From: a virus
Lineage: Duplodnaviria > Heunggongvirae > Uroviricota > Caudoviricetes
Virus record (IMG/VR): IMGVR_UViG_3300026382_000007
Strand: one strand, 5' to 3'
Length of the DNA stretch: 64,000 bases
Shown: one piece after another, positions 1-19,208 of the stretch
Position numbering within the stretch: the stretch's first letter is position 1
How the letters are laid out: the number at the start of each line of letters is the position of its first letter
Made by a program: the position numbers and the translations under genes
The notes under the pieces: model-generated
Databases searched by the model: none
What the model saw: the letters and a program-made list of their open reading frames with translations, nothing else
What the model was told of the DNA's origin: nothing

Positions 1-44
1 ATGACAGTGTAATTCCTGATGGGGCTGAACGATGGGCTGATTAT

Positions 45-1016
45 ATGAAAGTTCTTACTCCCGTAGAAAAGAAGTCAGATGGTATGTGGTACAAAAGGGA
101 AGACAAATTTGCCCTCCTTGGTATCAATACAATCAACGGTTCAAAATGTAGACAACTTCTACACCTATTTGAAACTCGCCCAGCTGGGGTTGATACTGTA
201 ATCCATGCTACAAATGTGAACAGTTCACCTCAAACACCCATGACTGCGGCAATGGCACACCACTATGGCCTGAGATGTATTCAAGTTGCTGGTGGTTCAA
301 GTCATAAAAGTTTATCAACTAAGGACTTGCCACTATTCGCTACTATGTTCGGAACTGAATATGAAACGACAATGGGCTCAGGCTTCAATGTGAATATTCA
401 GCGAAGAGTTCGTGATATTATGAAAGACTTCCCAAATTCGTTTACGATTGAGCGGGACATCACACTAGATCATAAATTAGAGTTCAATGGACCTGAAAAA
501 ATTCTAGCATTTCACGATGTCGGTGCTTATCAGACTAAGAACTTTCCTGATCATATTGAGGAATTGGTCATACCGTTTGGTTCAGCAAACTCAACAACAT
601 CAGTATTGTTGGGTCTATCGAGGGATCGTCCTAAAAATCTTAAGAAAATACACCTTGTCAATGTAGGAGTTGACAAACGAGCTTATATGTTTGAAAGACT
701 TGACATAATGGGTGCTGATTATTCTCAGTATGAATTTGTATGGCACGAAAGCGGTTACCCTTATTCAAAAACACTGAAGAATGTCAAGATTGATGATATC
801 ACATTCCATTATAGGTATGAGGCAAAAGTTTATCAGCATATACTTGATTTTCATCCTGAGTTGTTTAAAGAAACGACACTATTTTGGGTCATTGGATCTG
901 TTCCTGACCTTGCAACAACCGCCAAAAACATTGGCAAGGCTATCCCAGAAGAGATAAATGAATTCTTCTGGGAAGCAAAACCTGAAATTGACGAATGGCT
1001 GAAGGAGTCTGAATGA
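45..1016 (+). CDS. PLP-dependent enzyme (fold type II, ACC deaminase/cysteine desulfhydrase-like), homolog of Kuttervirus ViI gp226 thymidine-hypermodification decarboxylase; probably 5'-truncated
   Basis: Motifs KREDKF..GINGSKCRQ (PLP lysine), SPQTPM, GSGFN, ITLDH, PDHIEELVIPFGSANS, RYEAKV, TLFWVIGS follow the ViI gp226 family pattern as I recall it. The frame is open from nt 3 (DSVIPDGAERWADY-MKV), so the true start is probably upstream of the window. Confidence 0.85.
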   Translation: MKVLTPVEKKSDGMWYKREDKFALLGINTINGSKCRQLLHLFETRPAGVDTVIHATNVNSSPQTPMTAAMAHHYGLRCIQVAGGSSHKSLSTKDLPLFATMFGTEYETTMGSGFNVNIQRRVRDIMKDFPNSFTIERDITLDHKLEFNGPEKILAFHDVGAYQTKNFPDHIEELVIPFGSANSTTSVLLGLSRDRPKNLKKIHLVNVGVDKRAYMFERLDIMGADYSQYEFVWHESGYPYSKTLKNVKIDDITFHYRYEAKVYQHILDFHPELFKETTLFWVIGSVPDLATTAKNIGKAIPEEINEFFWEAKPEIDEWLKESE

Positions 1017-1726
1017 GAGTTATAAATTACATCGGTGCAAATGCAACTGGTAAATCGACAAGGGTTACTGTCCTTGTAAACTACTTAGAATCTAAGTTCG
1101 ATGTTGAAGATGTAGAATTCACATATACTAAGAAGTCTAAGAAAAATGGTGACAAGCAAGTCACTACAAAAGTCGGACTTCGCTTCTCAAATGGAGTTGT
1201 AATCTTTGGTAAGTTTGACGGAAGTCGTAAATGGATTGGCCTTGACACTGGTATGTGTTCATCTTGGGATCAAAGATCAGCATTTATCACTGAAATGAAA
1301 GCTCGTGGGGCTGAAACAGTAGTATTTGAGGGTTATTTTAACAACCGCAGTAAGATTGCTGGTCCTGAGACATTTCACAATGCTGGTGCTGATGAAGTTC
1401 ATATTCTAGCGAGTTTTTACGACAAATGTGAAGACTTCTTGATGAGAACTAATATCAGATCAGGAAAGTTGAGTCGTGGTATGGAATGGGCTGAAAATGC
1501 TCCTGGTTGGAAAGACAACAAGGGCATCATCAACTCACAAAAATATTGGCTAGAACAAGCTAAAGAAAATGACACGGTCACTCGTATTGACATTGATGAA
1601 TCAAGAGGTTATCTTGTTGAAAGATTCTTTGAAAAAGACTTTGATTATAATACATTTTATGAGTCATTTGAAAGTCCCTCAGTTGAAGCGAAAGCCCCTG
1701 GAGCGGACTTAGATGAGTGGTTCTAA
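1013..1726 (+). CDS. P-loop kinase, likely 5-hydroxymethyluridine DNA kinase (5-HMUDK)
   Basis: N-terminal Walker A GANATGKSTR, GK..KWIGLD and VVFEG motifs; ATGA overlap with the PLP enzyme; clustered with the dUMP hydroxymethylase. Confidence 0.75.
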   Translation: MRVINYIGANATGKSTRVTVLVNYLESKFDVEDVEFTYTKKSKKNGDKQVTTKVGLRFSNGVVIFGKFDGSRKWIGLDTGMCSSWDQRSAFITEMKARGAETVVFEGYFNNRSKIAGPETFHNAGADEVHILASFYDKCEDFLMRTNIRSGKLSRGMEWAENAPGWKDNKGIINSQKYWLEQAKENDTVTRIDIDESRGYLVERFFEKDFDYNTFYESFESPSVEAKAPGADLDEWF

Positions 1727-1782
1727 CCTTATATTAACCTTAAAATGGTGTTATTAACCTTTTAAGGTTAATATAGTGATTT

Positions 1783-1814
1783 TAAGGTTAATATAAGGTA
1801 ATATACGGTATAAT
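1783..1814 (+). promoter_or_regulatory. early promoter
   Basis: TAAG..TAAG..TACGGTATAAT (-10 at 1809). Confidence 0.8.
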
Positions 1815-1840
1815 ATAGTATATTTAAACAAAGGCTTAAA

Positions 1841-2071
1841 ATGAAATCTTACAACCTAGCAATGGCAAAGAACTTTTATTTCTATGCAATCACAACCTAC
1901 ATAACATTCATAGTGATATCACCAATAGCAATGACAATGGCGATGATAATCGGTGGACTTTCTTCAGTGAAAGACACTTATGGTAGAATCGCTGGTGAGT
2001 TCAAAAAAGTGAACAAGGTTGAATGGAAAGAAATTAGTAATGCAGTTTATGCGAAGTATGGGGTTGCATAA
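1841..2071 (+). CDS. small membrane-associated hypothetical early protein
   Basis: Directly behind an early promoter and AAAGG SD; hydrophobic stretch YITFIVISPIAMTMAMIIGGL. Confidence 0.6.
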   Translation: MKSYNLAMAKNFYFYAITTYITFIVISPIAMTMAMIIGGLSSVKDTYGRIAGEFKKVNKVEWKEISNAVYAKYGVA

Positions 2072-2901
2072 TGAAGAATCTTATGAAATGTGTAGTACAC
2101 TATATGCAAACTGGCGAACACTATGAGTTTGACACAATGGAAGAGCAAAGAGAATACCAAAAGGTTTCTACGAAAATGTTACTTGCTGGCGGTGGTGATA
2201 CTATTCGTGAGATGGCGACATTAGCTATGATACATGCAAAACCAGTTGAGGGAAAGCATGACTGGGATGGCTTACACGGAAAAACATTCGTTGAGGTCAA
2301 AAATGAAACTATGTCTGAGAAAGGCAAGTTTGGTGGAAAGGGCATCTTCAACAATCTCACTTGGAGATCATATGAGAAATATTCAAAGGGTGGTATATAT
2401 CTTCAAGGCTGTTATGGTCGTGATGGTATTTTGGTCGCAGTTGTAGCATTTCGCATTGAGCACCTACTTCCTAAGCTACATAAAGCACTGACTAGAGTAA
2501 TGCCAAACGGTGATGTCTCCGGGAAGAATGTTACGATCAATATTAGTGCCAGTGATTTCCCAGAAGAGACCGAATTAGTGTATCTTCGTGAGGATGCACA
2601 TCGCTCTCTATTCCCAAAGGCAATGTGGGCTCTTATGGCCGTTAGTTATGCTAACGGAACTAAGATTAAGGGTAGATCATACCTGAAAACCGAAAAGAAG
2701 TCAAAGGTCAAATTCACTAACCAAAAGGAAACTGCCGCGAAATATACCAAAGTTGCTGAAATGGTTCGAACCATTTACAACTCAAATATATTCACGATCA
2801 ACTATGATACTGAAAGAATTGAAATTGGTGATACATCAGTCAAACTTTCATCACTCAAACAACGATATCGTCGTGTAATCAAAAATAAGGAAGCTAAATG
2901 A
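2071..2901 (+). CDS. PD-(D/E)XK nuclease, resembling the Hef-like putative homing endonucleases of Campylobacter phages
   Basis: KHDWDG..FVEVKNE catalytic motif followed by GGKGIFNNLT; basic C-terminal extension. Confidence 0.6.
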   Translation: MKNLMKCVVHYMQTGEHYEFDTMEEQREYQKVSTKMLLAGGGDTIREMATLAMIHAKPVEGKHDWDGLHGKTFVEVKNETMSEKGKFGGKGIFNNLTWRSYEKYSKGGIYLQGCYGRDGILVAVVAFRIEHLLPKLHKALTRVMPNGDVSGKNVTINISASDFPEETELVYLREDAHRSLFPKAMWALMAVSYANGTKIKGRSYLKTEKKSKVKFTNQKETAAKYTKVAEMVRTIYNSNIFTINYDTERIEIGDTSVKLSSLKQRYRRVIKNKEAK

Positions 2902-4007
2902 AACATATAACAGGAAAAACAATAAACGAGGTTGTGTACAAGTCGCTTGATGCACTGATTTCAGAGGGTTATAGATCCCCATCTAGGAACGGTGACATTA
3001 GTACGATTTACAATGCATTCGTTGAAATTGAAAATCCTCGTTCTAGACATTTAAGTCTAGTTGGCCGTGATAGCAACATCTTTGCTACTATCGCTGAAAC
3101 ATTCTGGGTGTTCGCTGGTGATAATGCAATTGACCCTTATTTACAATTCTTTTTACCTCGTGCTAGAGATTATGCTGATGATGGTGAAACATGGCGAGGC
3201 GGTTATCCCGAGAGAATCAAAAATGGTAACCAGATTGATGATGTTATTCAGCAATTCAGAAATGAGGGGCTTTATACTCGTCGTGCTGTAACTGCTATTT
3301 ATGACACAAACCTTGATACTGCTGTGAATCTGAGAAAGGTTTATGGCCTTGAAACTACTAAAGATCGCCCATGTAACCTGATTATGGACTTCTTCGTAAC
3401 TCCTGACAAGCGGTTACACATGAATGTTAAGTCTCGTTCAGGTGATGTGCTTTGGGGATTTGGCTCAATTAACATTTTTGAGTGGACTTTCTACCAAGAG
3501 ATGATACTTCAGTTCTTACAAGATGAGATTGACCCTGATGTTACTATGGGCGGTTACAATCACCATGTGACAAACTTACACCTATATGATTTCAGCGGTG
3601 CTCAAGGGTATGCTGTTGTTGAAAATAAGCTGAAGCAATCACTTGGTGTTCAGAACTTTGACCGTTTGGTTTTTCCTGATGTAGATTTTGTACATAGTTA
3701 TTTCAAGTTCTTCGTCGCTCGTGTAAACACATTCATTGAAGAGGGTCGCACTGACTACACTGAAATGGTTGAAGAAATGACAAGGTTGTTTACTGATAAT
3801 GGTATTCCAACTGAAGACAACTTACTTTATGACTACATGAGAGTGACAGTTGCATACACTGCCGCAAAGAACATGAAGCTTCCAAAGGGTATAAAAACAC
3901 CCGATATTGAAGTTAATCTTGATGCTTGTGGGCCTGAGTTTGTCCGTGCTATCGCCAATTCAAAGTTTCGTAAGTTCACAATCTATTACAATGGAGTTAA
4001 GCAATGA
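2898..4007 (+). CDS. thymidylate synthase-family enzyme, likely dUMP hydroxymethylase
   Basis: Catalytic PC (KDRPCN), RSGDVLWGFGSINIFEW (Asn = dUMP rather than dCMP specificity), HHVTNLHLY; 369 aa; adjacent to kinase and PLP enzyme. Confidence 0.85.
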   Translation: MKHITGKTINEVVYKSLDALISEGYRSPSRNGDISTIYNAFVEIENPRSRHLSLVGRDSNIFATIAETFWVFAGDNAIDPYLQFFLPRARDYADDGETWRGGYPERIKNGNQIDDVIQQFRNEGLYTRRAVTAIYDTNLDTAVNLRKVYGLETTKDRPCNLIMDFFVTPDKRLHMNVKSRSGDVLWGFGSINIFEWTFYQEMILQFLQDEIDPDVTMGGYNHHVTNLHLYDFSGAQGYAVVENKLKQSLGVQNFDRLVFPDVDFVHSYFKFFVARVNTFIEEGRTDYTEMVEEMTRLFTDNGIPTEDNLLYDYMRVTVAYTAAKNMKLPKGIKTPDIEVNLDACGPEFVRAIANSKFRKFTIYYNGVKQ

Positions 4008-4804
4008 TAAATCTAAAATCAGTCAATAAGGCACTATCTGAGGATGGAGCCTATGTGCACCGTGCTCTTGATATTGAACTTGGTATTTCGCTGGAGGGTG
4101 TTACAGCTGAATTAGATGCGATCAGTGCTTCATACAGTGATGTCGCAGTTACTCAAAAGCTTTACAGACCTCGTGAAAACCACCCTGATCGCACAGGCGA
4201 TGCTGTTATGAGCACTATTGGCGAGCCTAAACATGCTCCTTTCTTGAAGATGCAAGGCAAAAACAAAAACCTTATGCGTCTCCAAATGCAGTATAATGAT
4301 ATTCTAAGCTACTTCTTCGGGGAAGATATGAGTGATACAAAGTCACTAATGAATTGGCAACGGTATAGACAAGGTGGGGACAATGCTCTTCCTTTCCATG
4401 TTGATTCCGAGTTCTTCAAAGGGCAATGGGATAAAGATTATATTGATCTTGAAGATGGGTTGATCCCTCGCTTTGTGATGGTTATGATAACTGAAAATGA
4501 AAATGCTGGTGCTGGGTTACAAATCAAGGGGAAAGATGGTGAGGTTTCAAATCTTGAACTGAATCCTGGTGATATGGTGATATTTGACAATACTAAGATG
4601 CTCCATGGAGTTCCAGTATCAACACCAAATAAGAGATCAATGGTCGGCTTCCGTAATTTTGAAGCTTATCCACTTTATTTCAATAAAGTTGAATTTGATG
4701 GTTCTCAACCATATGAAAATGGTCATATCAAGGGCTTCGCTGAAACAGTTGATCCTGATAAGGCTAGAACTATGCTATTCGAGGAGGAATTCACATATGC
4801 TTAA
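4004..4804 (+). CDS. 2-oxoglutarate/Fe(II)-dependent dioxygenase
   Basis: NWQRY..ALPFHVDSE (HxD), GLQI, PGDMVIFDNTKMLHGV (distal His), KRSMVGFR (2OG-binding Arg). Confidence 0.85.
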   Translation: MINLKSVNKALSEDGAYVHRALDIELGISLEGVTAELDAISASYSDVAVTQKLYRPRENHPDRTGDAVMSTIGEPKHAPFLKMQGKNKNLMRLQMQYNDILSYFFGEDMSDTKSLMNWQRYRQGGDNALPFHVDSEFFKGQWDKDYIDLEDGLIPRFVMVMITENENAGAGLQIKGKDGEVSNLELNPGDMVIFDNTKMLHGVPVSTPNKRSMVGFRNFEAYPLYFNKVEFDGSQPYENGHIKGFAETVDPDKARTMLFEEEFTYA

Positions 4805-5333
4805 TTTAAACTTGTTCGGTGGTCCAGGGCTTGGAAAGTCCACGACTGCTGCGGGAATATTTCATGAACTGAAGAAAACTGGTTCTAAAGTTGAATACAT
4901 CACTGAGTACGCAAAAGACTTGGTGTTTAGTAAAGACTTTTATCGTCTGAAAGATCAGACATACATTTTAGCTAAACAACATCACCATTTATTCAAACTC
5001 AAAGATCAGGTTGATTTGCTAATCCATGATGGCCCATTCCTACTTGGTTTGGTTTACCTACAAGAAAAGGACGGTTTTCCGGCTCAACAATTCCGAGACT
5101 ATTTATTAGCACTATGGAATTCTTATGAGCATGTAAACATATTCCTGAAAAGAAATACTGATGCGCATGGATATCAAGAGTATGGTCGTGAACAAACACT
5201 TGAGCAAGCACAAGCACTCGATGAACAAGTTCAAGACATGATGGATAAAAACGGTATTCCGTACCACATTGTTGAAGTTGGTGAAAACTCGGTCAAACAT
5301 ATCCTGGAAATCCTCGTAGGTCGTAGAAGTTAA
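4797..5333 (+). CDS. NadR/AAA_28-like P-loop nucleotide kinase
   Basis: Likely start ATG 4797 after GAGGAGG (the track's 4584 extension overlaps the dioxygenase); GGPGLGKST, EYITEYAK, LIHDGPFL. Confidence 0.7.
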   Translation: MLNLNLFGGPGLGKSTTAAGIFHELKKTGSKVEYITEYAKDLVFSKDFYRLKDQTYILAKQHHHLFKLKDQVDLLIHDGPFLLGLVYLQEKDGFPAQQFRDYLLALWNSYEHVNIFLKRNTDAHGYQEYGREQTLEQAQALDEQVQDMMDKNGIPYHIVEVGENSVKHILEILVGRRS

Positions 5334-5362
5334 GCAAGGTTTAAGCTACATTATAGTATAAT
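5331..5362 (+). promoter_or_regulatory. early promoter
   Basis: TAAG 5331 and 5342; TATAAT 5357. Confidence 0.85.
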
Positions 5363-5389
5363 ATAGTATATTATCTGAAAAGGCTTAAA

Positions 5390-5629
5390 ATGAATAACAT
5401 CCAATTAAAACTACACAAGATCTCAACACTTCTGAACCTCTTATCAAAGGTGACTTTGGAGGAAGAAGTGTTGATTGATACTTTCTCAACATCTATTTTA
5501 TTCACTATTGATGAAATTGATGAGCGAGCTGTTCGTGAATCTTTTGAACAAAATGGTGTTGAGTTTTCATCTCGTATGGAAAGATCCGGTCGTTGGACAT
5601 TTGACATTGATTTGTTAGGAGACGAGTAG
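5390..5629 (+). CDS. hypothetical early protein
   Basis: First ORF after early promoter plus AAAGG SD. Confidence 0.6.
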   Translation: MNNIQLKLHKISTLLNLLSKVTLEEEVLIDTFSTSILFTIDEIDERAVRESFEQNGVEFSSRMERSGRWTFDIDLLGDE

Positions 5630-5853
5630 TGACTGCGAAGGAAGTTCTTGATGAACAAAACAAAATCACGGTTGACATTGATGGGGGCGGAGACTACCTC
5701 TATTGTGTCACAATAGGTAAATGTTGGAAATTTGTTGCTGAAACAGACTTCCAAGCTTACGAAAAAGCACTGAAATACATCATGGACAACGGTGTCAGAA
5801 CTGATGCTGAAATAAAATATGAATACGAGAGAGGTAAAAATGCACTTCAATAA
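5629..5853 (+). CDS. hypothetical protein
   Basis: GTG start overlapping the upstream stop; tight packing. Confidence 0.55.
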   Translation: MTAKEVLDEQNKITVDIDGGGDYLYCVTIGKCWKFVAETDFQAYEKALKYIMDNGVRTDAEIKYEYERGKNALQ

Positions 5854-6025
5854 AAAGACTATAATCAAATCATTTAAGTTACTTGTAACTACGAAGCGGA
5901 AGCAAGGGGTTGTAGTTGAAAAACCTGAACTTGTTATACTATGGGACGATTATGTTCGCTCAGCAGTTAGTCAAGGGCTTGTTAATCCCAAAATGGCGAT
6001 CAAGTGGGTAAATCCATATGGTTAA
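5840..6025 (+). CDS. hypothetical protein
   Basis: GAGGT SD before ATG 5840; overlaps both neighbours. Confidence 0.5.
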   Translation: MHFNKKTIIKSFKLLVTTKRKQGVVVEKPELVILWDDYVRSAVSQGLVNPKMAIKWVNPYG

Positions 6026-6311
6026 GTTATCATTTGAAGAATACAAAACAAACTATCAAGGTGTTCGTATCAAGGAAACTTGCTCAGCACTGAAAATGTC
6101 CAAAAAGGAGTGTGAGCAACTGCTTCGTGATGGTTACAATGACTATCTAAAAGAGTGTGGATTTGCTGGTGAGCCTATGTCATATGATGTATGGTCCAAT
6201 CAACCTGGCCAAAAAGAGTTCTTCGCTAGGCTGTTTGTCTCAGAAGAGCGGTCTACTAGACACTTTAAGATGCAGCAAGCATATAAAAAATATAAGGAAA
6301 ACTTCAAATGA
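6018..6311 (+). CDS. hypothetical protein
   Basis: Operon packing, coupled to the dNMP kinase. Confidence 0.55.
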   Translation: MVKLSFEEYKTNYQGVRIKETCSALKMSKKECEQLLRDGYNDYLKECGFAGEPMSYDVWSNQPGQKEFFARLFVSEERSTRHFKMQQAYKKYKENFK

Positions 6312-6859
6312 AAATAGCTATTATGGGACAAGCCGGAGTCGGTAAAGATTTTGTTGTAGATGTATTTACAAAGAAATATGATTATACAAGGGTGTCATTT
6401 TCTGACCAACTGAAAAAATTAGCAGTAAAGATTTATCCTTGGTTTGAGCGGGATTATGCACCCGAAGTGAAAGAAAAGCCTCTTAACATTACAGTTGCTG
6501 GTGAACTTATCACCAAGACACCTCGTGAGATTTGGCTGAGTCTGAATAAACTCAGAGACATTGAAGATGGTATGTTCGTCCGTATGCTCGGCCAAGAAGT
6601 TAAGCTACTGAATGTCCCAAATATCATTATCAGTGATATCAGAACTCAAAATGAATATGACTGGTGTAAGGCAAATGACTACACAGTAGTTGCAGTGCTT
6701 CGTGAGAACATTGAACATGCTGAAAATAGCTTTGATGACTTCGTAAGAAGCCAAATTGCATTCGGTAATTATGAGTATGAGTTCAGAAATGATGAAACTG
6801 GTACTGATGAGATTGAGAAGTTCATTGAAAGTTGCTTCGTGGAGATATCTGATGATTAA
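6308..6859 (+). CDS. deoxynucleoside monophosphate kinase
   Basis: MKIAIMGQAGVGKD, SFSDQLK, TPREIW, IISDIRTQNE pattern of phage dNMP kinases. Confidence 0.8.
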   Translation: MKIAIMGQAGVGKDFVVDVFTKKYDYTRVSFSDQLKKLAVKIYPWFERDYAPEVKEKPLNITVAGELITKTPREIWLSLNKLRDIEDGMFVRMLGQEVKLLNVPNIIISDIRTQNEYDWCKANDYTVVAVLRENIEHAENSFDDFVRSQIAFGNYEYEFRNDETGTDEIEKFIESCFVEISDD

Positions 6860-7811: not shown

Positions 7812-8885
7812 ATGGAAAAACTAATTAAAATGCCATCAATCGGGCAATTTCGCAATGCGGTTCACGACCTACAACATCAAGTAAGATTCGTGGGAGTAGA
7901 TGAGGCTGGTGAGGCTATTTACGACAAGGGAATTCAATACCCTACAGTCGCATTCAAGGGAACTTGTAAGATTCACGGTACGAATGCCTCATACTGCCTA
8001 GATATAGACGGTAACGACTGGTTTCAATCTAAGGGAAATGTCCTTTCAATTGAAAAAGACAATGCTGGCTTTTGCTTCTTCGGCACGGCTCGTAAAGAAG
8101 AATTCACTAGAATGGCTTGTGACCTTGTACTGAAAATAGGTGAACTTGAAGTTGGTGAGCGAACTGTAACACTATATGGTGAGTTCTGTGGTGGTAACAT
8201 TCAAAAGGGTGTAGCTGTTTCAGGGCTTGACAAGATGTTCGTACTATTCGGTGCTAAACTATCACATGCTAATGTTGAAGACGGTGCTGCTGAATGGGTT
8301 GATATCTCAACCATTGAGTGTGACCACTCTAAGAACATCTATAATATCAATGATTTCCCTACATGGAAAATTGCTGTTAATCTAGCTGAACCAGCTGAGG
8401 CTCAGAACACTCTTATCAACCTGACTGAAGAAGTCGAAAGAATCTGCCCTATTGGCGCATTCTTCGGTAGAACTGATCCCGAGTCTGAGGATTACAATAC
8501 AATCGGTGAGGGGATCGTATGGGAATGCTCATTTAATGGGTCTACTGTCCGCTTTAAAGTCAAGGGCGAAAAACATAGTTCTTCAAAAGTTAAAAAACTG
8601 GCATCAGTTGATCCGGAAAAGATGGCGAATATCAAAGAATTCGTTGAATACTCAGTAACTGAAAACCGACTGAATCAAGGTGTTGAACAAGTTTTTGCAG
8701 GTGGACCAGCTATAATTGGTGGTACTGGAGACTTCGTAAAATGGGTCAAAGGTGATGTCATCAAAGAGGAACTTGACACCATGGTGGCGAGTGGACTGGA
8801 GATGAGAGAAGTTGCTGGGCCAATTAGCAAAAAGGCCGCAAATTGGTTCAAAGAATATCTTAATAAACAATCTGGTTTGATCTAA
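7812..8885 (+). CDS. RNA ligase, Rnl2 family
   Basis: Motif I KIHGTN, LYGEFCG (III), FVLFG (IIIa), GEGIVW (IV), RFKVK (V). Confidence 0.85.
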   Translation: MEKLIKMPSIGQFRNAVHDLQHQVRFVGVDEAGEAIYDKGIQYPTVAFKGTCKIHGTNASYCLDIDGNDWFQSKGNVLSIEKDNAGFCFFGTARKEEFTRMACDLVLKIGELEVGERTVTLYGEFCGGNIQKGVAVSGLDKMFVLFGAKLSHANVEDGAAEWVDISTIECDHSKNIYNINDFPTWKIAVNLAEPAEAQNTLINLTEEVERICPIGAFFGRTDPESEDYNTIGEGIVWECSFNGSTVRFKVKGEKHSSSKVKKLASVDPEKMANIKEFVEYSVTENRLNQGVEQVFAGGPAIIGGTGDFVKWVKGDVIKEELDTMVASGLEMREVAGPISKKAANWFKEYLNKQSGLI

Positions 8886-11618: not shown

Positions 11619-11965
11619 TTGCAAGATTAAAAACTACTGATAATCCAGCTATGGCTGAAATATTTCAGGGAACCCTTGGTAAGCTAGATTTGAACATGAT
11701 GATGTCAATCAGCTTCGAAAGAGTTGGATATATGTCAATCAGTGACATTAGACTGAGCACCCTTACATCTTCAAGAATTGAAAGCATCAATTATGAGTAC
11801 AAGGAAGAAAGTGTGTTTCTCACAGTAGCTACTAAGAATTCAATATATGTTTTTGAGGCTCTATATGATCAAGAAATACCTGAGTTTGAGGGATACAGTG
11901 AGAAACAAATCAAGCGAATAAAGCGACAAAATGAAATAGCGGAGGTGAAGCTTGAAGAGTCATAA
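11612..11965 (+). CDS. hypothetical protein
   Basis: Operon packing. Confidence 0.55.
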   Translation: MVIARLKTTDNPAMAEIFQGTLGKLDLNMMMSISFERVGYMSISDIRLSTLTSSRIESINYEYKEESVFLTVATKNSIYVFEALYDQEIPEFEGYSEKQIKRIKRQNEIAEVKLEES

Positions 11966-12581
11966 AGAAATCAATGATGAACTGGAGACTGTCTATAAAT
12001 GTGAGCCAGTGGAAACTGAGGAATGTGAGCCAGTGGAAACTGAGGAATGTGAGCCTGGTATGACCGAGGCTGTACCATTTGACCCGAAAACTTCAAACTT
12101 ATACCAACATGCTGTTAAAGAACTTCAATGGCTCACTGAAGAAGAGGATGATGAAGATCCAAACGGTGGACCGAATAAATGGGCTTATGATAATATCCTT
12201 GAATTAATTGAGGTTTTTGCTAGACAAGGTCATTCAGGAATGTCTGCTCCTTATGTGATCAACATATTCAAAGAACTTGCTAACTACAAGATAATTGGCG
12301 GTTTGACTGGTGAAGATAATGAGTGGAATGATGTTAGTGAGTATGGTGATGGGACTATGCTTTATCAAAATAATCGTGACTCAAGAGTGTTCAAAGATGA
12401 CTCCGGTGCTTGGTTTTTAGATGGGACTCTATTTGAAGATCCCATCTATCCAGGAAACTATATGTCAACAATAAAATCAAGACATTATATCAAGAGTTTT
12501 CCTTACACACCCAAAACTGTGTATAAAAAGGCTCCGATCTGGAAAAAGATTGCTGCGAGGCTATTCCCTTCTAAGTTTTAA
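11952..12581 (+). CDS. conserved phage hypothetical protein with an N-terminal CEPVETEE repeat
   Basis: QGHSGMSAPY and LTGEDNEW motifs; 24-bp repeat about 2.4x at 12000-12057. Confidence 0.6.
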   Translation: MKSHKEINDELETVYKCEPVETEECEPVETEECEPGMTEAVPFDPKTSNLYQHAVKELQWLTEEEDDEDPNGGPNKWAYDNILELIEVFARQGHSGMSAPYVINIFKELANYKIIGGLTGEDNEWNDVSEYGDGTMLYQNNRDSRVFKDDSGAWFLDGTLFEDPIYPGNYMSTIKSRHYIKSFPYTPKTVYKKAPIWKKIAARLFPSKF

Positions 12582-17151: not shown

Positions 17152-18156
17152 ATGGGAAAATACGACTGGGGTTCAATGAAAGCTGGATTACAAAAAGGTG
17201 TTGGTGAGAAGAGTGATAAAAAGGATTATAACGATCCTCGTGAGTGGAAACTAACAGTTGATGAAAATCAAAATGGAACAGCGGTTATCCGTCTTCTTCC
17301 GGGAAAAGGTGGTACAACTCCTCCTATTGTAAGAATCTTCGAGCACTCTGTAAGAATCTTTAACAAGAAAAGTAACAAATATCGTTACTTCATTAATCCA
17401 TCTCCTGCTTCAATTCAGGAAGACTGTCCAGCTTCTAAGCTATGGTACGAACTTGGTGACATTGGTACGGATGAGGCGAAAGCTTTACAAAAAGAGGTAA
17501 GTCGTTCAACGAAATTCATCTCTAATATCCTTGTAATCAATGATCCAGGAAATCCTGAAAACAACGGGAAAGTGTTCTACTGGAAATACGGTGTAAAGAT
17601 GTTTGAGAAGTTCCAAAAGGCACTTGAGCCTACTGAAGCACAACTCAAAGTTGGTAAAAAAGGTGTTGAGCTTTTTGATCCTATGCTTGGTGCTGATATC
17701 GTAATTGATGCTCAAAAAGTTGCTGGTTTCCGTAACTATGATGGTTCTACTATTGAAGCACCATCTGCGGCATTCGCTACTGAAGCTGAAGCTGACGAAG
17801 TTGTTGATGAAAAATGTTTTGATTTGACTGAATTCATTTCACCTGATCATTACGAGCCATATGAGAAGTTACTTAAAAATCTTCGCTGGACTCTTGCTGG
17901 TTCTCCTATTGAGGCACTTGCAATTCTAAGTGGTTCTGAAGTTATTACTGAAGAATATAAAGAGAGAGGTAACACAAGCGGAGCAAATGCGAAAGCTGAC
18001 TCTGCTACACCATCTGCTGGTACTGCTTCTAAGCCAAAAGTTGAGCCGACTCCTGAACTGGAAACGACTCCTCAACCTCAGGTTGAAAAACCAAAGCCGA
18101 AACCAAAGCCAGTTGCATCTGACGATGATGTACTTGCTATGCTAGACGATCTTTAG
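17152..18156 (+). CDS. 32: single-stranded DNA-binding protein (gp32-like)
   Basis: DPREWKL..NGTAVIRLLP, CPASK, SNILVINDPGNPENNGKVFYWKYG, RNYDGS, acidic LDDL tail; likely start ATG 17152 after AAGGA. Confidence 0.9.
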   Translation: MGKYDWGSMKAGLQKGVGEKSDKKDYNDPREWKLTVDENQNGTAVIRLLPGKGGTTPPIVRIFEHSVRIFNKKSNKYRYFINPSPASIQEDCPASKLWYELGDIGTDEAKALQKEVSRSTKFISNILVINDPGNPENNGKVFYWKYGVKMFEKFQKALEPTEAQLKVGKKGVELFDPMLGADIVIDAQKVAGFRNYDGSTIEAPSAAFATEAEADEVVDEKCFDLTEFISPDHYEPYEKLLKNLRWTLAGSPIEALAILSGSEVITEEYKERGNTSGANAKADSATPSAGTASKPKVEPTPELETTPQPQVEKPKPKPKPVASDDDVLAMLDDL

Positions 18157-19208
18157 TCATAGACTAAATCGAGTGGCTTATCCGTGGGCTTCCTTTGAGG
18201 CTCACGACCCAAACCACTGAAGTGTTTTATAACATCTTCGTGTAGAGGAAATCTTATCTTGAGACTCCTCTTTAATTCATCCTCTGAAAAATCATCATAC
18301 GGATTAATTCCTGTGATTTTAATGAAATCATCTAACTGATAAATCCTCCAACCAAACTTATGACTATGACGACCATTCTGCCATAACGGAATCCATCTGA
18401 CTACATCCGCATACATAGGGTATTCTCTTAATCCGAGTTTCCGTTGAGTCATTCTATTCTTACTAAAAAGCTCTAGACTGATTTTTAACTCTTTGAGCAC
18501 ATACCCTTTCATGCCTCTTAAATGACGAGCCTGAACTTCCCCTTGCATATCTAGTATAACAATCCGAGTCTTAGGATTCAACTGAAAATGAGGTCTTGAA
18601 GATTTACCGCCTTTCGGACGACCACCCTTATTACTCTTTGGTTTAGGAATCCCTTTTTGAGCTTTGGTGATCGCTTCCTTGTGTGCTGGTGTTAAAGTTC
18701 GTTTACCACCGTATTCCTTTAGTGCTTTGGTTTTCGCTTTAGACTCTTGGGTCTTATTTATATAAATCTCTTCTGGGACTTCATCATTAGTCTGAATATA
18801 CTCTACGAAGAAGTCCGAGCTGAAAGTCGTTCCTGCACCCAAAGTCTCAGAGGTCTTGATTATAAGAAGTTCGTATTCTGATAAATCAGTGATTTGTAGG
18901 CTTCTATAATACCCCTTTATTGATCTTAAAGATTCCTTAATCTTAATTTCAAGCTGACTCTTATATAGTTCAAGTTGATCCGACCGTTTGATTTTACCTG
19001 ACGGCAGCAAAAAGGTCCTGACCCTTTTAAACTTCAAGTTCGAACTATCAGATTCTAAAGACTTAAAAGTATCACCATTAACACTCGAACTCGAATAACA
19101 AAGAAAAAATAATTTATTAAAATAAGTCACTTGGTAAAGATGCATATAACTCATTTCACTACTCTCACTACTCTCACTACTCATTCCACTATTATTCATT
19201 ATACTCAT
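18153..19208 (-). CDS. degenerate GIY-YIG (Seg-like) homing endonuclease derivative with NUMOD3/NUMOD1-like DNA-binding motifs
   Basis: HLYQVTY..FFLCYS (decayed GIY-YIG), TPAHKEAITKAQKGIPK (NUMOD3), IVILDMQGEV (NUMOD1-like); the only plausible minus-strand gene. Confidence 0.5.
   Translation of the reverse strand: MSIMNNSGMSSESSESSEMSYMHLYQVTYFNKLFFLCYSSSSVNGDTFKSLESDSSNLKFKRVRTFLLPSGKIKRSDQLELYKSQLEIKIKESLRSIKGYYRSLQITDLSEYELLIIKTSETLGAGTTFSSDFFVEYIQTNDEVPEEIYINKTQESKAKTKALKEYGGKRTLTPAHKEAITKAQKGIPKPKSNKGGRPKGGKSSRPHFQLNPKTRIVILDMQGEVQARHLRGMKGYVLKELKISLELFSKNRMTQRKLGLREYPMYADVVRWIPLWQNGRHSHKFGWRIYQLDDFIKITGINPYDDFSEDELKRSLKIRFPLHEDVIKHFSGLGREPQRKPTDKPLDLVYD
19168..19195. repeat. 9-bp tandem repeat (actactctc) encoding SES repeats
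   Basis: Seen directly. Confidence 0.7.

Follow-up and report, generated by a model that had tools for sequence, protein, structure and literature searches.

The first 5,333 nucleotides of a 64,000-nucleotide stretch from an uncultured tailed phage (IMG/VR virus record IMGVR_UViG_3300026382_000007; the whole stretch is referred to as the window) form the downstream two-thirds of one co-directional, operon-like array of DNA modification genes. This array probably lets the phage, a myovirus, build its DNA on 5-hydroxymethyl-dUTP (hmdUTP) and then hypermodify part of the 5-hydroxymethyluracil (hmU) after replication by the route known from Salmonella phage ViI. The enzyme activities, the nucleophile, and the final base are all predictions, drawn from homology, from catalytic residues that are kept, and from a gene order that relatives share.

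Gene content of the modification array

The parent metagenome contig of the window, JGI Ga0256838_1000018 (137 kb; L005 in the coordinates below), was retrieved through protein identity to the DNA kinase encoded near the start of the window. Window and contig differ at one base across the 11.7 kb that they have in common, and the contig adds 9 kb upstream; the sequence examined thus comprises the 64-kb window and these 9 kb (73 kb). Proteins of the ViI genome (Vi01) were used as tblastn queries against the window and against L005. The modification genes lie on the + strand in a single array of ~13 kb that spans the upstream part of L005 and the start of the window. Within positions 1 to 5333, seven open reading frames (ORFs) form a tight + strand run in which most junctions overlap by 1 to 8 nt (ATGA-type). 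A nucleotide search with positions 1 to 6000 against cultured phages returned no match.

In ViI, the pathway to 5-(2-aminoethoxy)methyldeoxyuridine (5-NeOmdU) comprises the dUMP hydroxymethylase gp66, the 5-hydroxymethyluracil DNA kinases (5-HMUDK) gp67 and gp243, the serine:DNA transferase gp247, the pyridoxal phosphate (PLP) decarboxylase gp226, and gp160 (PMC5889632, PMC8989533). Homologs of seven ViI proteins (gp63, gp65, gp66, gp160, gp226, gp243, and gp247) are encoded here, each matching its ViI counterpart best. With L005 as the target, E values were 1e-48 for gp226, 3e-6 for gp243, 1e-40 for gp66, and 1e-13 for gp65. A first-pass annotation of the window, made from the sequence alone, had recognized five clustered genes (a PLP enzyme, a kinase, a thymidylate synthase [TS] homolog, an oxygenase, and a second kinase) and had proposed a ViI-type gene set. 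All five genes are real and lie on the + strand, and the seven homologs support the ViI-type reading at the gene level.

The window opens inside the gene for a PLP-dependent enzyme (positions 1 to 1016, +), whose start lies 34 nt 5' of the window (full gene L005:8955-10004, 349 aa). The protein is 32% identical to ViI gp226 (tblastn, E 1.6e-48) and matches phrog_3650 (E 5e-60). Its Lys60 sits in an NGSK motif common with gp226 and aligns to gp226 K92, the residue named as the Schiff-base lysine (PMC8989533). Weak matches to ACC-deaminase and fold-type-II PLP enzymes were also obtained, and tblastn against cultured phages returns proteins of Ackermannviridae and of Vibrio phages, including one that carries the annotation of a tryptophan-synthase-beta-like PLP enzyme. 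We regard the protein as a putative decarboxylase of the amino acid adduct.

Directly before the PLP gene, just upstream of the window, lies a gene for a 411-aa transferase of the aGPT-Pplase2 family (L005:7723-8958), which a search of the upstream sequence identified by its match to gp247 (30% identity over 313 aa, E 1.2e-26); the transferase is thus found where the first-pass annotation had expected it. The protein keeps a Glu and a Cys common to gp247 and to its mycobacteriophage homolog. An essential Cys with a neighboring Glu has been reported for this family (PMC8989533), and the conserved pair probably corresponds to these residues. A PDB sequence search with the transferase gave no meaningful match.

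The gene following the PLP enzyme (positions 1013 to 1726, +) encodes an HMUD2-type, gp243-like kinase predicted to act on 5-hmdU in DNA. It scores 36.6 bits against PF18747 ("5-hmdU DNA kinase 2"; cut-off, 25), is 28% identical to gp243 over 170 aa (E 9e-6), and has an intact Walker A motif at residues 8 to 15. Further upstream, a gp160-like protein of the aGPT-Pplase1/HMUDK_hel type (L005:2633-3802) matches PF18723 HMUDK_hel at E 1.3e-61 and ViI gp160 at 36.5% identity (E 3.5e-65). The window itself holds no match to gp247, gp160, or gp67.

The TS homolog (positions 2898 to 4007, +) is 38% identical to ViI gp66 (E 4e-40) and to other Ackermannviridae homologs and matches phrog_3676, an Ackermannviridae TS family, at E 1.4e-79; the match to Pfam Thymidylat_synt is weak (E 2.5e-8). 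It carries the catalytic Cys158 and an R-S-x-D motif (Arg180, Ser181, and Asp183) and fails the NCBIfam ThyA equivalog test (best score, 34 bits versus a cut-off of 174.6), with 19 to 31 bits against the other ThyA models (cut-offs, 108 to 405). Its best solved relative is the CMP hydroxymethylase MilA; in place of an Asp in that enzyme, the protein has Asn192, which favors uracil rather than cytosine as the substrate. Neither Pfam searches nor gene calls reveal a TET/JBP enzyme among the array genes. Since the hmU-specific kinase and the transferase need hmU and no TET/JBP enzyme is recognized, the best reading of the TS homolog is a predicted dUMP hydroxymethylase (dUMP 5-hydroxymethyltransferase).

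Three further genes belong to nucleotide metabolism: a dNMP kinase similar to ViI gp65 (dnk) at positions 6308 to 6859 (+; 28% identity, E 4e-13, with weak Pfam matches to DNMK and P-mevalo_kinase) and, on L005 upstream of the transferase, a dimeric dUTPase (tblastn with ViI gp63, E 1.5e-8) and an NT5C deoxyribonucleotidase recognized by its family match. With the pathway chemistry drawn from PMC5889632 and PMC8989533, the dUTPase would supply dUMP, the nucleotidase would drain dTMP, and the TS-family enzyme would hydroxymethylate dUMP. The gp65-like kinase, and possibly also the AAA_28 kinase described below, would phosphorylate hmdUMP on the way to hmdUTP, which the phage polymerase would use. 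In the finished DNA, the HMUD2 kinase is predicted to phosphorylate hmU to 5-phosphomethyldeoxyuridine (5-PmdU), the gp247-like transferase to swap the phosphate for an amino acid via a Cys-linked exocyclic methylene intermediate, and the gp226-like enzyme to decarboxylate the adduct, with 5-NeOmdU or a close analogue as the expected product.

The array resembles that of ViI in that the PLP lysine, the Glu and Cys of the transferase, and the P-loop of the kinase are kept and the radical-S-adenosylmethionine (SAM) step is absent. No radical-SAM gene is called in the array, and the ViI route therefore fits better than the M6 route. Unlike in ViI, where the pathway genes are spread from 36 kb to 152 kb in the genome, they are condensed here to ~13 kb, with three conserved insertions: a PvuII-like protein, a 2-oxoglutarate (2OG) oxygenase, and an AAA_28 kinase. 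Canonical thymidine in virions, which the first-pass annotation took as grounds for refutation, would not count against such a pathway, because part of the hmU ends as thymidine in phages of this kind: PhiW-14 and SP10 turn part of it back into T (PMC5889632), and at most half of T is hypermodified in M6 and ViI (PMC8989533).

The pathway itself is established, and clusters of 5-HMUDK, aGPT-Pplase2, and PLP decarboxylase genes beside dUMP hydroxymethylases are widespread in IMG/VR2 and GOV2.0 contigs (Lee et al. 2018; Lee et al. 2021, Fig. 2); no fewer than 1 in 2000 phages were estimated to carry such thymidine hypermodification clusters (Lee et al. 2021). The present locus shares with these metavirome clusters the same three gene types adjoining a dUMP hydroxymethylase gene on an uncultured viral contig. 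The Fe/2OG dioxygenases of those clusters are TET/JBP enzymes that replace the hydroxymethylase, whereas the present array retains the hydroxymethylase beside an oxygenase that has no recognized TET/JBP signature and has an AAA_28 kinase as its partner. Given how widespread these clusters already are, the locus is a further example of a known anti-restriction strategy, and the main pathway adds no new principle. Hypermodified thymidines are among the major defenses of phages against restriction, and their pathways supply enzymes for DNA chemistry; the locus presents the ViI enzyme set outside Ackermannviridae in one array, a convenient cassette for heterologous reconstitution.

Conserved companions of the ViI-type genes

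Related arrays occur on other uncultured phage contigs. The independent 165-kb contig L008 (also present as IMG/VR locus L020) has the same gene order, with 40 to 84% protein identity. In L015, the aGPT-Pplase2, PLP enzyme, and HMUD2 genes form a triplet with the oxygenase directly after it. Three relatives (L009, L010, and L011) have an additional module, made up of a GATase_6-ADDT protein and an HMUD1 kinase, inserted after an HMUD2 kinase and ahead of the nuclease candidate, the TS homolog, the oxygenase, and the AAA_28 kinase. In L009, the first protein of this module (L009:250-2016, 588 aa) joins a class-II glutamine amidotransferase domain (GATase_6) to an ADDT/aGPT-Pplase2-like domain and is followed by the HMUD1 kinase; it could deliver glutamine-derived ammonia to 5-PmdU. 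The idea that a different transferase replaces the ViI-type genes in L009-type relatives was rejected, since L009 starts within the C terminus of HMUD2 and the GATase_6-ADDT gene is an inserted extra.

The 2OG/Fe(II) oxygenase (positions 4004 to 4804, +) belongs to an unnamed family. In a 34-sequence family alignment, H132-x-D134, H201, R211, and R217 are invariant, and the AlphaFold2 (AF2) model (predicted local distance difference test [pLDDT] score, 89.6) is a double-stranded beta-helix fold with the full iron- and 2OG-binding motif. Pfam matches are weak (2OG-FeII_Oxy_3 and TauD). In fold it comes closest to prolyl hydroxylases (Z 15.2, TM ~0.5), a generic likeness, and the top 50 structural matches hold no TET or JBP chain, which leaves room for a distant relation. 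A tblastn search of 50,697 cultured phage records returned no homolog, and the PDB sequence search gave no meaningful match. The family comprises 98 representatives at E<=1e-3 (50% clustering), and its bacterial members stand beside an aldehyde dehydrogenase and a major facilitator superfamily (MFS) transporter. A hint from ESM Atlas features at a HalD/BesD-like amino acid hydroxylase was set aside, as the common features are too few to count. The wide family alignment diverged too much to be used in scanning for loci; a narrow one gave two IMG/VR loci, both already in our set.

The oxygenase gene is followed directly on its 3' side by an AAA_28 kinase gene in all eight phage contexts read, one of which is a truncated N terminus at the end of L015. 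Stop and start codons of the two genes usually overlap, by 8 nt in the window. The oxygenase does not belong to the ViI pathway. The oxygenase is linked to hmU genes in six of the eight contexts, and in four lineages the pair comes directly after the TS homolog; in L018, the genes upstream of the pair are NMNAT-like and NAD-kinase-like rather than hmU genes. The oxygenase/AAA_28 pair is a module linked to hmU genes, with a candidate function only. L022 (L022:1002-2613) carries two oxygenase copies in tandem, flanked by the TS homolog and the AAA_28 kinase; they share 46% and 28% identity with the oxygenase of the window.

The AAA_28 P-loop kinase (178 aa) occupies positions 4797 to 5333 (+) and not, as annotated earlier, a gene beginning at 4584. 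It has an intact Walker A motif and matches PF13521 (E 7.5e-13) and phrog_2107, "thymidylate kinase" (E 2.4e-20). Homologs are widespread in jumbo phages, including Lak, Caulobacter, Erwinia, and other phages. The AAA_28 family includes ribosylnicotinamide kinases. No similarity to ViI gp67 was detected, and the PDB sequence search gave spurious designed-repeat matches only. By its family matches, the protein is of the nucleotide or nucleoside kinase type rather than a second 5-HMUDK. The first-pass interpretation stands largely for gene content and for the location of the transferase, and it overreached on the host, on the identity of the second kinase, and on the exact product.

Between the HMUD2 kinase and the TS homolog lies a gene for a 276-aa protein (positions 2071 to 2901, +) that has no Pfam or PHROG match, no match in cultured phages (tblastn, 50,697 phage records), and no meaningful PDB sequence match; four homologs were found in 5.8 billion proteins. 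Among these, D66 and E75-V-K77 are invariant. The AF2 model is of modest confidence (pLDDT 66), and its top structural matches are all PD-(D/E)xK enzymes, PvuII (Z 8.1) followed by DpnI, NhoI, I-Ssp6803I, and Hjc, with Z near the background level. The core (residues 67 to 173) superposes on PvuII with Z 8.1 and a root mean square deviation of 3.1 Å over 98 residues. In its modeled core and in an invariant D...ExK-like motif, the protein tentatively resembles PvuII and other type II PD-(D/E)xK endonucleases; it differs from them in lacking sequence similarity, in having no visible methyltransferase partner, and in being positionally conserved in related phages (L008 and L009), like an ordinary phage gene. 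With moderate confidence, based on the model and the conserved residues, we consider it a candidate nuclease that would cut unmodified (host) DNA. The 76-aa ORF preceding it (positions 1841 to 2071, +) has no Pfam or PHROG match and no counterpart at this position in L008, where the gene calls pass from the kinase straight to the 276-aa homolog.

Alternative readings of the array

Several observations weigh against the ViI route as proposed. Identity to the ViI enzymes is low (28 to 38%), and Pfam fails to recognize the transferase and the PLP enzyme. No gp67-type kinase is found at E<=1 by tblastn within the 73 kb; whether ViI needs gp67 is not known (PMC5889632). The nearest cultured relative of the transferase is a mycobacteriophage protein (39% identity, 86% of length, E 1e-62), encoded by gene 3 of the Mycobacterium phages of Coopervirus (VioletZ, Magpie, and Apex); in the 8.8 kb around that gene, unlike here, no PLP, TS, or HMUD2 homolog is detectable. 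As the transferase is closer to this uncharacterized protein than to gp247, serine specificity is not established and the appended group is not settled. The additional oxygenase could alter the base that results. Finally, ACGT is wholly avoided in the window, which suggests that some T-containing sites are left unprotected by the modification.

Ordinary nucleotide metabolism, in which the TS homolog would act as a conventional thymidylate synthase or as a dCMP hydroxymethylase and the DNA would contain canonical T or 5-hydroxymethylcytosine, would agree with the membership of the protein in the thymidylate synthase superfamily and with a CMP hydroxymethylase as its best solved relative. We consider it highly improbable: ThyA equivalog scores reach only 19 to 34 bits versus cut-offs of 108 to 405, Asn192 replaces the Asp of MilA at the base-specificity position, and the hmU-specific DNA kinase, the HMUDK_hel protein, and the aGPT-Pplase2 would have no substrate unless hmU were in DNA, which no recognized TET/JBP enzyme is there to make otherwise. 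Another alternative is an hmU/5-PmdU pathway that ends in a base other than 5-NeOmdU. Here another nucleophile would be used, or the oxygenase, with the AAA_28 kinase, would further oxidize and phosphorylate the side chain or hmU in DNA, giving a new hypermodified thymidine. The transferase shares just 30% identity with gp247, and the cultured protein closest to it is uncharacterized; the oxygenase adjoins hmU genes in six of the eight contexts, comes directly after the aGPT-Pplase2, PLP, and HMUD2 genes in L015, and has no homolog among the cultured phage records. Yet its constant partner is a kinase common in large phages, which points to the nucleotide pool and not to DNA, the neighbors in L018 are NMNAT-like and NAD-kinase-like, the bacterial family members sit in a small-molecule setting, and the fold gives no clue to the substrate. 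A different final base is accordingly unlikely in our view.

The same two genes could instead act on the nucleotide pool, with the oxygenase hydroxylating thymidine or dTMP from host DNA and the kinase phosphorylating the product, so that host T would be salvaged into hmdUTP beside the de novo TS route. The strict coupling of the pair (8/8 phage contexts), its place directly 3' of the TS homolog in four lineages, the annotation of the kinase's PHROG as thymidylate kinase, and the presence of a candidate nuclease and an NT5C nucleotidase in the same array all fit such a module, and thymine-7-hydroxylase, which matches the oxygenase model at Z 11.6, is a 2OG precedent. However, thymine-7-hydroxylase ranks 44th structurally, below many unrelated oxygenases, and shows no specific similarity; the hydroxylase-then-kinase logic is our construction, the L018 context suggests a link to NAD-related genes, and AAA_28 also takes in ribosylnicotinamide kinases. 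We therefore give this salvage module a rather low probability, and for the pair itself a nucleotide-pool role is slightly favored over side chain tailoring. More broadly, and tentatively, the pair could perform an undescribed step in the biology of hmU-DNA, either converting host thymine nucleotides to hydroxymethyl-dU nucleotides or tailoring the base to a thymidine derivative unseen in phages so far, with the PvuII-like nuclease feeding or protecting the process by cutting unmodified DNA. The three conserved uncharacterized companions (nuclease candidate, 2OG oxygenase, and AAA_28 kinase) may explain the disposal of host thymine or the diversification of the base.

Phage identity, ACGT avoidance, and neighboring genes

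The rest of the window encodes a gp23-type capsid protein, gp32, UvsW, topoisomerase II, RNase H, a tail sheath protein, and T4-type baseplate proteins, which identifies the phage, on gene content, as a large tailed myovirus with T4-like core genes. The best cultured matches of the capsid protein are Rhizobium phages (39% identity), followed by Ralstonia, Acinetobacter, Escherichia, Vibrio, Thermus, and Yersinia phages; neither a Campylobacter phage nor ViI appears among the cultured matches. Judged by its capsid, which does not match that of ViI, the phage is not a member of Ackermannviridae. No tRNA was found in the window, a genome-collection scan with a PemK-like toxin gave no close relative, and a literature search with the sample accessions gave no hit. 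These results speak neither for nor against a Campylobacterota host, and the new pairing of host and modification suggested by the first-pass annotation therefore cannot be claimed.

The avoidance of ACGT is complete across positions 1 to 64000 (0 observed versus 96 expected under a second-order Markov model). Related tetranucleotides are also depleted: GCGT (1 observed versus 66 expected), ACGC (10 versus 46), and GCGC (11 versus 31). Nor does any of the 20 most under-represented 6-bp palindromes occur, although the Markov expectation is near zero for most of them. L008 carries the same modification cluster and has normal ACGT counts (21 observed versus 22 expected), indicating that the avoidance is lineage or host specific. 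The PvuII-like nuclease of the phage itself was rejected as the cause, since L008, with these counts, has a nuclease homolog.

A scan for promoters and terminators found nothing beyond chance level. A PemK-type toxin-like gene (L005:6604-6924) lies inside the nucleotide metabolism array, ~2.1 to 2.4 kb upstream of the window. At L005:1-2460, two genes with three small ORFs between them together encode a family-B DNA polymerase, one specifying its exonuclease domain (504 aa) and the other its polymerase domain (403 aa); L008 shows the same split. Downstream of the array, positions 7812 to 8885 encode a 357-aa RNA-ligase-family protein (Pfam RNA_ligase, 4.8e-6) with 60% identity in L009. A large ORF on the - strand (positions 18153 to 19208) lies in a stretch where the GC skew is reversed. 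Pfam gives no match for it, structural hints of a GIY-YIG nuclease are very weak, and an Atlas search with it was uninformative. Positions 11952 to 12581 encode a 209-aa protein that matches Pfam Tad3, a type I Thoeris inhibitor, at E 8.8e-33.

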